From: Escherichia coli | Lineage (GTDB): Bacteria > Pseudomonadota > Gammaproteobacteria > Enterobacterales > Enterobacteriaceae | Assembly (NCBI RefSeq): GCF_013122565.1 | Contig: NZ_CP053258.1 | DNA: 64,000 nt | Direction: 5' to 3' (one strand) | Shown: in pieces, positions 4,900 to 40,953 of the stretch | Numbering within the stretch: the first letter of the stretch is position 1 | How the letters are laid out: every line of letters begins with the position of its first letter | Notes under the pieces: generated by a model | The model's input: the letters and a program-made list of their open reading frames with translations, nothing else | Databases searched by the model: none | What the model was told of the DNA's origin: nothing | Translations under genes and position numbers: made by a program

Positions 4900-5229
4900 C
4901 TACGATTTGCGCATGCTTAACAGTGCGCCGATAAAAATACCTACCGCAGCTGCTGTACCCACGCTACACCAGGGTCTTTCACGAACAAAAGAATCCGCGC
5001 AGCCAACGGCATCGCGCGCGGCTTGCTGGACGCGAGTACGACCATGCATTCGCGCCCTGGTTTCTTTCAGTAGAGCCTGCGCTTTACTACGAGCGGCTTC
5101 AGCTTCCCCTTTGGCGTCGCTGCCCCAGGACTTCAACACAGACTCGAGGCTGTCAGCTAATTGATTGACATCATTCTGGATATCCTGCACGCCATCATCA
5201 ACGTCGTTGCGGTTCGGTCGGTTAAACAT
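4900..5229 (-). CDS. ygaM: ElaB/YqjD/YgaM family membrane-anchored stress protein
   Basis: ORF track gives 113 aa from 5241; K-12-like start is the internal Met (MFNRPNRNDVDD…), giving 109 aa. C-terminal hydrophobic anchor (AAAVGIFIGALL). Confidence 0.8.
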   Translation of the reverse strand: MFNRPNRNDVDDGVQDIQNDVNQLADSLESVLKSWGSDAKGEAEAARSKAQALLKETRARMHGRTRVQQAARDAVGCADSFVRERPWCSVGTAAAVGIFIGALLSMRKS

Positions 5230-5380
5230 ATGATCCCCCATTAGAATTCGATGTAATTTTCAGTGTAGACCATAATTTTCTTAACTGACGTTCATCGCGG
5301 CTTTATGGACTTTTCTGAAAGCGTTGTGAATGCGCAATCAGGTAAGGTAGGCCCGCGGTTGATAATAACGAGGATCAAAT

Positions 5381-5725
5381 ATGTATTTACGACCAGACGA
5401 GGTGGCGCGCGTACTTGAAAAAGTCGGTTTTACTGTCGATGTGGTAACCCAGAAAGCTTATGGTTACCGCCGTGGGGAAAATTATGTCTATGTTAATCGC
5501 GAAGCGCGAATGGGACGTACCGCCCTGGTGATTCATCCAACATTAAAAGAACGTAGTTCAACACTGGCTGAACCCGCTTCCGATATTAAAACTTGCGATC
5601 ATTATCAACAATTTCCGCTCTATTTAGCGGGTGAACGTCATGAGCATTACGGTATCCCGCATGGCTTTAGTTCGCGTGTTGCGCTTGAACGTTATTTGAA
5701 TGGTTTATTTGGCGAAGCCAGTTAA
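5381..5725 (+). CDS. ygaC: Uncharacterized protein YgaC (DUF2002)
   Basis: 114-aa ORF, synteny between ygaM and alaE. Confidence 0.8.
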
Positions 5726-5761
5726 AGACGCGACTGGCGATGCCAGTCGCGAAAAGAAGAG

Positions 5762-6211
5762 TCAGGCTTTTACCTGCTGGTAACGGCTGACTTTAAACAG
5801 TCGGCGGCAATAATCGAGGAAGTAGCCATAAACCGCCCCCATCAACATCGAAACAACGATGTTTGAACTGACCGCCGCCATAATCTGATGCCAGTCTGCG
5901 CCCACCACTAACAAGATCGCCACATACACCGGTGACTGGAACGTCACATAAGCCATGATATCCGCCAGATTTTTTATCCAGCCCGACGGGCTAACTTTGC
6001 GTGCTGCGCGCATAAACAGATCGCGGTACATACCGTATGGCCATGCAATTAAGATGTTCACCGGAATCGCTACCAATCTGGAATAAAAAGACTGTTCGAA
6101 GCTCATTCCGGAGAGGAAAACTTCAATACACATGTTCACGACAGAACAGTAAACAACCATCGCGAACGTATCTGCAACTGCATGACGCAAGCGTGACTGC
6201 GGTGAGAACAT
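5762..6211 (-). CDS. alaE: L-alanine exporter AlaE (YgaW)
   Basis: 149-aa hydrophobic ORF, synteny next to stpA. Confidence 0.82.
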
Positions 6212-6878
6212 GCTAATGCTCCTTAATAAAAGCGTAATGGAATGTTAATGGAGATGAAAGCAGTGGATCTCATTGCCATCTGCATTTTCGCATAGCGTAT
6301 ATCGCTGGCTATGACTAATCAATTAGTGAAAAATTTTTATTTAAACTGTTTTTGTAGATAAAATATTCCGTAACGGCGCGTTTTTTGTACATTGTGGATT
6401 TTTACATGCCGATATGGTTTATTTTCAATTGAATCAATTAGATATGACCTTGCCTTTAATTACACTAATGAAAGTTTGGGGGTGAGGTAACGCTATAAGC
6501 GTAGAGAATTCGGTGTATGTCGTGACCGGGTCATTTTCAGCATTTTTTATGCCAGAAAATGTACATTGACAGCAGAAAGCACCAGTGAGGGGTGTTTCCA
6601 TTTATTCGGTTAAATTGCATTTTTATTCATTTTTGTTTTGTCAGGCTTGCGGAATTAGCGAGCAGAGAGCGCCGCTCTGCTCACAAATAACCTAAATTAC
6701 TCATCAAAATGGCTAATATATAATCTTGAAATTATTCTGAGAGTTTAAGAAAATAACAGCTGAAATAATCTCGCGCAGGACTGTAAATAGATTAAATTTT
6801 GTGGAAATATAATAAGTGATCGCTTACACTACGCGACGAAATACTTTTTTGTTTTGGCGTTAAAAGGTTTTCTTTATT

Positions 6879-7283
6879 ATGTCCGTAATGTTACAAAGTT
6901 TAAATAACATTCGCACCCTCCGTGCGATGGCTCGCGAATTCTCCATTGACGTTCTTGAAGAAATGCTCGAAAAATTCAGGGTTGTCACTAAAGAAAGACG
7001 TGAAGAAGAAGAACAGCAGCAGCGTGAACTGGCAGAGCGCCAGGAAAAAATTAGCACCTGGCTGGAGCTGATGAAAGCTGACGGAATTAACCCGGAAGAG
7101 TTATTGGGTAATAGCTCTGCGGCTGCCCCACGCGCTGGTAAAAAACGCCAGCCGCGTCCGGCGAAATATAAATTCACCGATGTTAATGGTGAAACTAAAA
7201 CCTGGACCGGTCAGGGCCGTACACCGAAGCCAATCGCTCAGGCGCTGGCAGAAGGTAAATCTCTCGACGATTTCCTGATCTAA
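6879..7283 (+). CDS. stpA: H-NS paralogue / RNA chaperone StpA
   Basis: 134-aa [36 protein letters not shown]…[16 protein letters not shown]; H-NS family DNA-binding motif TWTGQGRTP. Confidence 0.95.
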
Positions 7284-7329
7284 TTACTGAGGCCGGATGT
7301 CGCTGCTATGGCGCGTCCGGCATCGCTTC

Positions 7330-7854
7330 TCAAGCTCGTTGGTTCCACGGCATCTTATCTAACAACCTTGCCATCCCACAAAAACCGCTAATTCCTGCAA
7401 ACAGTAACCCGGCACCAACAAAGCCGCTTAATAAGAAGAAACCGCTATTTACGGTATAACCCAGTATAACGCCGATTAATATTAAACCACCCGCAGCGAT
7501 CTGCACCTGGCGCATTAACGGCAAGGGTTGAGATTTATTTACCGCTACTGGCAATCCTGCTTTTTTCCAGCCATCAATCCCATCTTCGAGTAAAAAGATT
7601 TCTGCGGGGGCGGCAATCACTGCTAATTTATCGGCGTTATTACTGGTGCGTTTACCTGCCTGGCAGTGGAATATAATTTGCTCGCGACGTAATTTAGCCG
7701 GGAGACCTGACTGTTCCAGCACGGATAATGGAGCCAGATCTGCTTCAGGAATATGTTCACGAAGATATTCATCAGCGTCACGAATATCGATTAACTTTGC
7801 ACCGCGTGCGATTAATTTTTGTGCATCATGCGGCGAAATGGTTGTCAAAGCCAT
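7330..7854 (-). CDS. ygaP: Membrane-anchored rhodanese (thiosulfate sulfurtransferase) YgaP
   Basis: 174-aa ORF; rhodanese active-site region (…[11 protein letters not shown]…) plus C-terminal transmembrane segments. Confidence 0.85.
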
Positions 7855-7863
7855 AGTGACTCC

Positions 7864-8163
7864 TTACGGACAATAGACATTTTTCAGGGTGGCGATAATG
7901 GCATTTACCGCCTCATTTTTAATGGAATATAGAATGCGTTGGGCATCCCGTTGGCTGTCGATAAGCCCTTCGTCCCGCATACGAGCGAGATGCTGTGATG
8001 TCGCAGAGGCACTCAGTCCGGTAATGCGCGTCAGCTCTCCCGCGCTGGTGCCGGGGGAACCGCTGAGCATGCACAGAATCAGCAACCGTTTAGGGTGGCT
8101 CATTGCTTTCAATAAGGCCGCTGCCTGTTCGGCACTGGCCTGTAATTGCGCGAGTTCAGTCAT
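7864..8163 (-). CDS. ygaV: ArsR/SmtB-family transcriptional regulator YgaV
   Basis: 99-aa ORF with winged-HTH region (…SAGELTRITGLSASATSQHLARMRDEGLI…), immediately upstream of ygaP (operon ygaVP). Confidence 0.85.
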   Translation of the reverse strand: MTELAQLQASAEQAAALLKAMSHPKRLLILCMLSGSPGTSAGELTRITGLSASATSQHLARMRDEGLIDSQRDAQRILYSIKNEAVNAIIATLKNVYCP

Positions 8164-8345
8164 ATTTATTTAAGTATTTTCTAAATTAAGTAAACTCTAA
8201 ACTAAAAATGCAACGTTTACCAGCCTCAGCAGCGTAAATGAGAGTAAAAGCGTAAGCTGAAACTGGCAGGCTCCGCTAAAATTACTACGCTTAAGAGATA
8301 AAATCTCTTTTTAAACAATGAGTAATTTTCTTATAGGGAGTACAT

Positions 8346-8504
8346 ATGGGTTTCTGGAGAATCGTCATCACCATCATTCTGCCGCCGCTCGGCGTGCTGC
8401 TCGGTAAAGGGTTCGGTTGGGCGTTCATTATTAATATTCTGCTGACACTGCTTGGGTATATCCCCGGTTTGATTCACGCGTTCTGGGTGCAAACCCGCGA
8501 TTAA
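8346..8504 (+). CDS. yqaE: Pmp3/UPF0057 family small membrane protein YqaE (52 aa)
   Basis: Hand translation atg ggt ttc tgg aga … gat taa gives MGFWRIVITIILPPLGVLLGKGFGWAFIINILLTLLGYIPGLIHAFWVQTRD. Below the 60-aa ORF-track cut-off; the overlapping minus-strand ORF 8331..8516 in the track is spurious. Confidence 0.8.
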   Translation: MGFWRIVITIILPPLGVLLGKGFGWAFIINILLTLLGYIPGLIHAFWVQTRD

Positions 8505-39726: not shown

Positions 39727-40953
39727 TTATCTCACCAGCTTTTCGGCACGCTGGTGTTTGGCCTGATACATATTGTGATCGGCAAGCTCTTGTAATTTTT
39801 CCGCAGAGGCGTGCTCAATGGTCATCGCGTAACCAATGCTTAATGTCATGGTGGTCTGATAGCCATTATGAAGATCAAACGGGAGATTAAAGATTTGTGT
39901 CAGTGCTGAACATATCTGCTGCACTTCAGATTCCGACTGTACATCATAGAGCACCATAGCGAATTCATCGCCGCCTATGCGGTATGCTTTATGTCGCAGC
40001 CCGCCAAATTCAGCTAACCGTTTTGCGATTTCAATCAAGACTCGATCGCCCGTCGCATGACCCCAGGTATCATTGATATATTTGAAATTATCGCCATCAA
40101 GAAATAGTAACGCCGACGTTTTTCGGGCATCGGAACTGTTCATCAACGTGTTGATACCGCTACGAAACGCTGCGCGGTTAGCCAGCCCGGTTAATGGGTC
40201 ATGTAGTGCGGTACGTAGAAGCTGCGCATTTTTGGCCTGTAAACGAAGCTGCCACTCTTCCATTTCATCCAGCAGACTGTTGAAGTCGAGAGCGAATCGG
40301 TGAAACTCAGCGATACGTTCTTCCGAAACTCGTCGGGAAAAATTGCGGTTGGAACGCACATCATGTACGACATCGGTGATATTTTTCAGCGCTTCCACCA
40401 GGCCATTGTGCAAATGGCGGGTGAGGGTAATTGCGATGCCTGATGCCAGCAGAATACAACCGGTCAGTACGGCGAGCGAAAACCAGATAAAATGGCTGAT
40501 TGAACTGTCGCGAGCGGTTAAGCGTACTTCGCCAATGGTTTCACCATTGTGACGAATCGGCTGAATAATGGGGGCAGGGAAGAGCCAGTGGCTTATGAAA
40601 TTGCTGAAAGTATCGCCTGGATCCTTACGGGTGTAATGCCAGGATGCCAGAATATTTTGCTGCTTATCACGTACTTCTGCAGTTGAAAATTGCCCTTGCT
40701 GGCCCAGCGCTGCCAGTGTTTCAGTTGCTGCAGGGCCATCGGCAAAAACGACAGCTGCTTCCAGACTGTAAGTCATTGTTGCTGCTGTCAGTGCCAGGTT
40801 TTTTTGCGCGTACTGTTTCAGGGTCAGCACCGAGGTCACGGAAAGCAGCAACCAGATCAGCATCATAGTGATAAATATGCTGGTCATACTGATGTTGCGT
40901 AATGCTCTTTTAAACGTGGGGCGCTTATTAAGAGAATTATCGTTATCCATCAT
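39727..40953 (-). CDS. dgcN: Membrane diguanylate cyclase DgcN (YfiN), GGDEF domain
   Basis: 408-aa ORF with TM/HAMP region and GGDEF motif (…[11 protein letters not shown]…). Confidence 0.88.

Follow-up and report, generated by a model that had tools for sequence, protein, structure and literature searches.

What fills the long gap between the divergently transcribed genes alaE and stpA of Escherichia coli; is it coding sequence, structured RNA or regulatory DNA, and does the inverted repeat embedded in it have a function? We pursued these questions in a stretch of 64,000 nucleotides of E. coli DNA (contig NZ_CP053258.1 of assembly GCF_013122565.1), which we call the window, and the features discussed are collected in Table 1. 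It is highly probable, in our view, that the gap is a shared divergent control region of alaE and stpA that acts as protein-binding DNA and not as RNA or coding sequence, with the repeat as a by-product. Such a region would control alaE leftward and stpA rightward. The alaE-stpA control region is already known, and the proteins that chiefly regulate it are in the literature. As a long, AT-rich divergent promoter region controlled by nucleoid proteins, the locus could stand in a textbook, and its value as a discovery is small.

Table 1. Features of the alaE-stpA locus, in positions of the window
Feature	Position	Strand	Remarks
alaE (ygaW), L-alanine exporter CDS	5762..6211	-	149-aa ORF; annotated as alaE in matching E. 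coli records; left boundary
alaE-stpA divergent intergenic regulatory region	6212..6878	.	667 bp, 34.9% GC
alaE-proximal conserved cis-regulatory block	6262..6445	-	columns 70-100% identical across 53 non-Escherichia species
GC-richer spacer patch 1	6470..6531	.	50% GC, poorly conserved
ARG-box-like pair, candidate ArgR operator	6593..6631	.	box 2 core TGCATTTTTATTCA at 6616-6629; weaker box 1 core at 6595-6608
GC-rich patch 2, containing the repeat	6640..6685	.	46 bp, 60.9% GC; gapped or unalignable outside E. coli
Perfect 8-bp inverted repeat GAGCAGAG-N7-CTCTGCTC	6660..6682	.	judged incidental
stpA -10 hexamer TATAAT	6808..6813	+	identical to K-12; TGGAAATATAAT block conserved across genera
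Start of stpA transcription (A at 6819) and 60-nt 5' UTR, which includes the ribosome-binding region	6819..6878	+	by transfer of the K-12 start site
stpA CDS	6879..7283	+	134-aa ORF, protein 100% identical to K-12 StpA; right boundary

The original prediction, made from the letters of the window alone, had placed a gap of 667 bp at 6212-6878 and had called it unusually long, and both statements hold. The K-12 counterpart, at 668 bp and with zero annotated features in the RefSeq record, ranks second largest among the roughly 50 inter-feature gaps in the homologous 49.5 kb of K-12. Blattner and colleagues reportedly gave in 1997 a mean gap of 118 bp and some 70 gaps longer than 600 bp. A search with AlaE returned 80 loci from different species, in 58 of which stpA divergently adjoins alaE, and these 58 loci plus K-12 make up our 59 Enterobacteriaceae comparison sequences; in every one of them the gap is long (475-789 bp), and its GC content lies between 31 and 43%. 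A brief look at the species without stpA beside alaE was uninformative. Two records labelled E. coli stand apart at this locus. The first, NZ_JAATUR010000021.1 (SCPM-O-B-8794), groups with E. whittamii and Escherichia sp. E1V33, has a StpA that is 95.5% identical and a gap sequence of the E. whittamii/E1V33 type, not of the E. coli type, and is probably a cryptic-clade Escherichia under an E. coli label. The second, NZ_CP044293.1 (E. coli P276M), has frameshift annotations on both alaE and stpA and many small indels throughout the gap, which looks like an artefact of assembly quality and not like biology.

The composition of the gap is as extreme as had been claimed. Its GC content is 34.9% vs 49.5% for the window, tracts of five or more A or T occur at 13.5 per kb vs 4.1 per kb window-wide, and only 3% of all 667-bp segments of the window are as AT-rich, the remaining ones all falling within a single island at 16-21 kb. 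That sole other stretch, at 16400-21400, reaches its minimum of 28.8% GC near 18700 and may be a horizontally acquired island.

Could the gap code for a protein or an RNA? As predicted, 6212-6878 holds no ORF of 60 amino acids or more, the longest inside the gap being one of 55 amino acids on the minus strand (6434-6601). A conserved small ORF was not found in the gap either, where start codons and reading frames are not preserved across species; the small ORFs that do show similarity between genera were rejected as candidates, their similarity being owed to conserved DNA and present whichever strand is read, and a 25-aa small ORF has no ATG in the majority of genera and is interrupted by an in-frame stop codon in K-12. 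With respect to RNA, an Rfam scan of 5000-8500 with E values up to 10 returned three noise hits only (E 6.5-9.4), far below the gathering scores, and the Term-seq tables that Adams et al. compiled for K-12 list no RNA 3' end within the gap; these tables represent limited growth conditions and skip from K-12 position 2,798,243, inside stpA, to 2,800,533. It is probable that alaE was poorly expressed in the Term-seq growth conditions. We also considered a structured alaE leader, i.e. a riboswitch or an attenuator, which is ruled out by RNAalifold: 0 consensus pairs in the 240 nt upstream of alaE across 23 genera. The transcript ends on either side of the gap can be noted here as well. The Term-seq tables place the main stpA 3' end at K-12 2,798,048, and the end at 2,798,243 corresponds to about 7131, within the stpA CDS and 252 nt past its start codon. 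At 5729-5750, between the convergent stop codons of ygaC and alaE, lies a strong GC-rich palindrome, GCGACTGGCGATGCCAGTCGC, which is a likely bidirectional terminator.

If the gap is regulatory DNA, then where are its promoters and which proteins bind there? The stpA side is the better defined. In K-12, in-vitro run-off transcription and RNA-seq place the stpA start at 2,798,556, behind a perfect TATAAT -10; this start is seen with purified E-sigma70 and in a delta-hns strain, is absent in the wild type, and is in line with Thomason et al. and with RegulonDB (PMC10301672). An exact copy of the 25 nt that precede it is present in the window, which puts the start at the A at 6819 and the -10 at 6808-6813. 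From -25 to +1, and in the -10, the window is thus identical to the K-12 promoter, which is described as H-NS-repressed and Lrp-activated (Free & Dorman 1997, cited in PMC10301672 and PMC4668568); the flanking genes are the same too, and the gap length is within 1 bp. The stpA 5' UTR and the Shine-Dalgarno region are strongly conserved in the cross-species alignment. A promoter consensus scan did not call the true stpA promoter because its -35 is poor. That an AT-rich stpA promoter is governed by H-NS, as originally proposed, finds support in the appearance of the start in delta-hns but not in wild type (PMC10301672) and in genomic SELEX, in which the stpA-alaE spacer was bound by H-NS and by the RpoD holoenzyme (PMC3946193). 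In its AT-richness and its abundance of A/T tracts, the gap has the composition of H-NS-silenced DNA. We take the high-affinity nucleation motif of H-NS to be TCGATAAATT, and this motif is not enriched, with one match at ≤2 mismatches in the gap (1.5 per kb vs 1.6 per kb window-wide). StpA, in turn, reportedly represses its own gene (work of 1996 attributed to Sondén and Uhlin and to Zhang and co-workers). Taken together, the published experiments and the exact sequence transfer establish an H-NS-silenced sigma-70 promoter for stpA at 6808-6819; from it stpA is transcribed rightward, with its -10 at 6808-6813 and its start at 6819, and in wild-type cells it is silent.

The binders named in the original prediction were H-NS and StpA; H-NS was named rightly, and the best-documented ones, Lrp (PMC10127797) and ArgR (PMC4381063), were left out. 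For Lrp, the published record is extensive: strong ChIP peaks are found at the stpA-alaE region; in minimal medium alaE is under weak repression by Lrp, which gives way to strong activation when leucine, isoleucine and valine are present; ~5-fold of the Lrp-dependent activation of stpA requires a further Lrp site, situated in ygaP more than 1 kb away; and by AFM the DNA of the stpA-alaE locus is bridged by Lrp, bridging that leucine abolishes (PMC10127797, Ziegler & Freddolino 2023). The Lrp-bridged locus of that work and of Kroner 2019, cited there, is the same locus as ours. Induction of alaE by L-alanine through Lrp, and its strong up-regulation, with activation by ppGpp, are in the literature as well. 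Published work thus establishes that Lrp occupies the locus, regulates both genes and bridges the DNA. In the window, Lrp would occupy the gap, activate stpA and bridge the gap DNA to the second site inside ygaP, and leucine or alanine would switch the effect of Lrp on alaE from weak repression to strong activation.

Where in the gap might Lrp bind? The conserved AT-rich blocks that we find fall in the region for which Lrp occupancy of the stpA and alaE promoters has been reported (PMC10127797). In the alaE-proximal block, 6262-6445, AT-rich boxes are spaced ~30 bp apart, and 6293-6307 encloses a palindrome that reads AGCGATATACGCT on the alaE strand. The two arms of this palindrome covary, being AGCG/CGCT in Escherichia and AGAG/CTCT elsewhere; the stretch 6293-6307 matches the Lrp SELEX consensus with 3 mismatches. 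A conserved ORF and a consensus RNA structure were both looked for in this block, and neither was found. The block probably carries the alaE promoter together with Lrp sites; a tentative alaE -10 around 6304-6298 would give a 5' end near 6291, and the SELEX-based prediction would place that end near 6429. Unlike the reported occupancy (PMC10127797), matches to the Lrp consensus in the gap are not above chance, with only two at ≤3 mismatches, and across the window a scan with YAGHAWATTWTDCTR gave 100 matches vs 91 expected and is not discriminating. Scans with Lrp and H-NS motifs fail to recover the published binders because these binders are degenerate, as is to be expected. The only zero-mismatch match to the Lrp SELEX consensus in the window is CAGAATATTTTGCTG at 40648-40662, inside the dgcN (yfiN) CDS.

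For ArgR, ChIP-exo has revealed a new association upstream of ygaW, i.e. alaE, which was confirmed by EMSA (Cho et al. 2015, PMC4381063), so that ArgR binding somewhere upstream of alaE is established by the literature. The gap offers a candidate at base level. Two ARG-box-like sequences lie 21 bp apart at 6593-6631, and against the consensus that we assumed for scoring, TGAATWWWWATTCA, box 2 matches at 13/14 positions, the best single ARG-box match in the 64-kb window, and box 1 at 9/14. Their pair score of 22/28 is likewise the best in the window, under a scoring that is lenient in that the best pairs were picked with the assumed consensus; scored identically, the K-12 operators reach 24 (carAB), 26 (argF), 26 (argI), 24 (argE-argC) and 19 (argR), and the candidate pair falls within this range. 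Like known ArgR operators, which consist of paired 18-bp ARG boxes with a 3-bp spacer (PMC4381063), the candidate has the core geometry TGNAT-N4-ATNCA and a second box 21 bp off. It differs from them in its weak box 1 and also in its position: classical ArgR repressor sites overlap the promoter, and the candidate precedes the stpA start by ~190-225 bp and is separated from the alaE ATG by 382-420 bp. All seven gap sequences from Escherichia retain the core TGCATTTTTATTCA (-261 to -264 relative to the stpA ATG), and so do all long-gap genera (-231 to -392), where the surroundings are unalignable. On the strength of this sequence pattern, the palindrome at 6616-6629 with its weak partner is probably the ArgR site that was reported upstream of ygaW/alaE, and ArgR would bind there upstream of alaE. 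For those who work on this locus, 6593-6631 may be a helpful by-product, a base-level candidate for the reported site.

How is the gap constrained as a whole? Against 53 non-Escherichia species, conservation is sharply uneven: both promoter-proximal ends are kept, the stpA end being the stretch 6801-6878 with the -10, the leader and the ribosome-binding site, and the middle evolves fast, with 6637-6722, which includes the repeat, gapped in most genera. The same is seen at closer range. E. coli and E. albertii are 50% identical in 6446-6700 vs 80-84% at the third codon positions of alaE and stpA, and among 10 strains a 50-bp stretch has as many as 8-12 variable sites in 6410-6700 and 0-1 in 6708-6906. 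Within E. coli, only 24 of 5,419 genomes are at least 99% identical to the window over 6100-7000 vs 3,600 of 5,422 for a 501-bp stretch of dgcN. The window strain itself differs from K-12 at ~3.5% of positions over the 901 bp of 6100-7000; these differences cluster in 6410-6700, and one of them is the base on which the perfect match of the repeat depends. That upstream gaps bound by H-NS evolve faster is a general observation already in the literature (PMC4720273). A second by-product of this work, which may also be of help, is a conservation map of the locus, with two constrained parts, 6262-6445 and 6801-6878, vs parts that are free to vary.

Two rises in GC content recur across the species, one at +261 to +320 from the alaE ATG, which patch 1 matches, and one at -200 to -260 from the stpA ATG, which patch 2 matches. 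Are these patches, with or without cruciform extrusion, boundaries between AT-rich nucleoprotein domains of Lrp, ArgR and H-NS? Across 59 species the rises keep constant distances from the two start codons, which would fit such a role, as would the steadiness of the gap length in Escherichia (661-669 bp) despite ~50% identity in mid-gap and the presence of the best local hairpin at -190 to -265 from the stpA ATG in ~26 of 60 sequences. However, the segment from -290 to -170 folds no better in the 60 sequences than composition-matched shuffles (mean z -0.23; window z +0.3), and with this control the clustering vanished and the positionally conserved hairpin was dropped as a candidate; a lack of constraint between selected AT-rich sites explains the rises equally well; and across genera the gap length does vary, from 475 to 789 bp. 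We think it very unlikely that the patches are such boundaries. Slightly less improbable, though still unlikely, is the broader idea that the gap is constrained by architecture and not by sequence, with AT-rich modules separated by GC-richer boundary patches at fixed distances from the genes. If true, it would mean that an alaE/Lrp, a central ArgR/Lrp and a stpA/H-NS module are separated by spacer that turns over faster than synonymous sites while its length is held at 661-669 bp in Escherichia, and that the derived perfect hairpin allele could alter a boundary beside the stpA module. Because the segment folds no better than shuffles, the rises look like unconstrained spacer, and under our preferred reading the patches at 6470-6531 and 6640-6685 would be just that, lying between AT-rich protein-binding modules.

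This leaves the repeat. A perfect 8-bp repeat at 6660-6682 in a GC-rich patch had been claimed, and it is there: the arms are GAGCAGAG (6660-6667) and CTCTGCTC (6675-6682), the loop is AGCGCCG, and the symmetry extends to 12/14 bp. We judge it incidental, that is, a chance, strain-specific feature with no demonstrable function, which would be a by-product of the GC content of patch 2. A perfect 8-bp repeat with a loop of 3-10 nt arises in 14% of 2,000 dinucleotide-preserving shuffles of the gap. Counted against the incidental reading is the isolated 43-nt hairpin, which folds at -14 to -19 kcal/mol and better than shuffles (z -2.3 on the plus strand, -3.3 on the minus strand).

Might this hairpin function as RNA, either in a long stpA leader made from a distal promoter or as the 3' end of a small RNA? 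The original prediction had proposed to check for a fold in the stpA 5' UTR; this placement does not hold, because the stpA start maps to 6819 and the repeat thus lies upstream of the promoter, at -159 to -137, where it cannot be a cis-regulatory element of the 5' UTR. A distal promoter is not without a candidate, since a promoter-like TTTACA-17-TTTAAT some 450 bp ahead of stpA was predicted from genomic SELEX (PMC3946193), and the arm substitutions found within E. coli, all of which are C-to-T on the plus strand, keep G-U pairs in plus-strand RNA and are thereby weakly compatible with an RNA stem. This pattern is, however, what mutation bias alone would give, transcripts that span the repeat are not known, the mapped start follows the repeat at a distance of 137 bp, the sequence that sister species show in place of the repeat is unrelated, and the gap has neither K-12 Term-seq 3' ends nor an Rfam match. 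There is also no T-run after the stem on either strand (ACAAATAACC follows on the plus strand, GCTAATTCCG on the minus strand), and a terminator scan did not call the repeat; as an intrinsic terminator it was rejected on these two grounds and for want of a Term-seq 3' end, under limited conditions. The repeat resembles intrinsic terminators and REP-type palindromes in being a short GC-rich stem-loop in intergenic DNA, but unlike them it has no T-run and no RNA 3' end, is single-copy and has unconserved arms. A functional RNA hairpin here seems to us extremely unlikely.

The distribution of alleles bears on a second possibility, namely that a dimeric transcription factor uses the repeat as a palindromic operator to regulate stpA or alaE. 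We counted alleles by exact 30-mer searches in 5,426 complete E. coli genomes, about 950 of which carry none of the sampled alleles. The window allele, with its 8/8 arm match, occurs in 464 genomes (8.6%). At least 4,005 carry an imperfect allele: the K-12 allele, with the change C6680T and right arm CTCTGTTC (7/8; 1,841 genomes), the O157-type allele, with right arm TTCTGTTC (6/8; 1,172 genomes), the EC958-type allele, with loop AGAGCCG (7/8; 578 genomes), and two further alleles, both 7/8 (231 and 183 genomes). At the variable position, T is also the base of Escherichia sp. MOD1-EC7003, the closest outgroup that can be aligned, and because it shares this T the perfect repeat is the derived state; a T-to-C change in a minority lineage of E. 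coli would have made it perfect. In E. albertii, E. whittamii and related cryptic clades, the sequence at the place of the repeat is unrelated. The conservation of both half-sites among strains and species that marks an operator is therefore not seen in the repeat. Perfect symmetry at 8 bp, reaching 12/14 bp, and a position between two regulated promoters would suit an operator, but the right arm has one or two mismatches in most E. coli, the loop changes too, nothing is conserved outside E. coli, and the chance rate is 14%; we give this proposal hardly any credence. The negative outcome is useful in itself: the repeat is outside the stpA leader, is unconserved and needs no functional explanation.

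A last possibility is that the GC-rich patch and the repeat are the scar of a small mobile or repeated element of REP/BIME or MITE type in the Escherichia lineage. The composition of the patch is unlike that of its surroundings, ~6637-6722 is gapped against most other genera, and in one Citrobacter locus an unrelated insertion, GC-rich and palindromic, lies closer to alaE. Each of 5,418 complete E. coli genomes nevertheless has the 65-bp segment around the repeat once and only once, and no plasmid has it; because it is single-copy, the repeat belongs to no repeat family, and the multiple copies typical of REP/BIME, ERIC or MITE elements are not seen in these genomes, where it occupies one place each. 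Moreover, at the corresponding position other genera do not simply lack the patch but have GC-richer sequence that cannot be aligned, and neither terminal repeats nor a target duplication is seen. An element scar is, on balance, very unlikely, and we retain the reading of the repeat as a by-product of patch 2. As for the Citrobacter locus, that of Citrobacter amalonaticus, its insertion of ~130 bp is GC-rich, contains nested palindromes (e.g. GCCCCTGAGGGGC), lies just upstream of the alaE ribosome-binding site and has no counterpart in any of the other species; its appearance is that of a REP/MITE-type insertion into the leader region of alaE.
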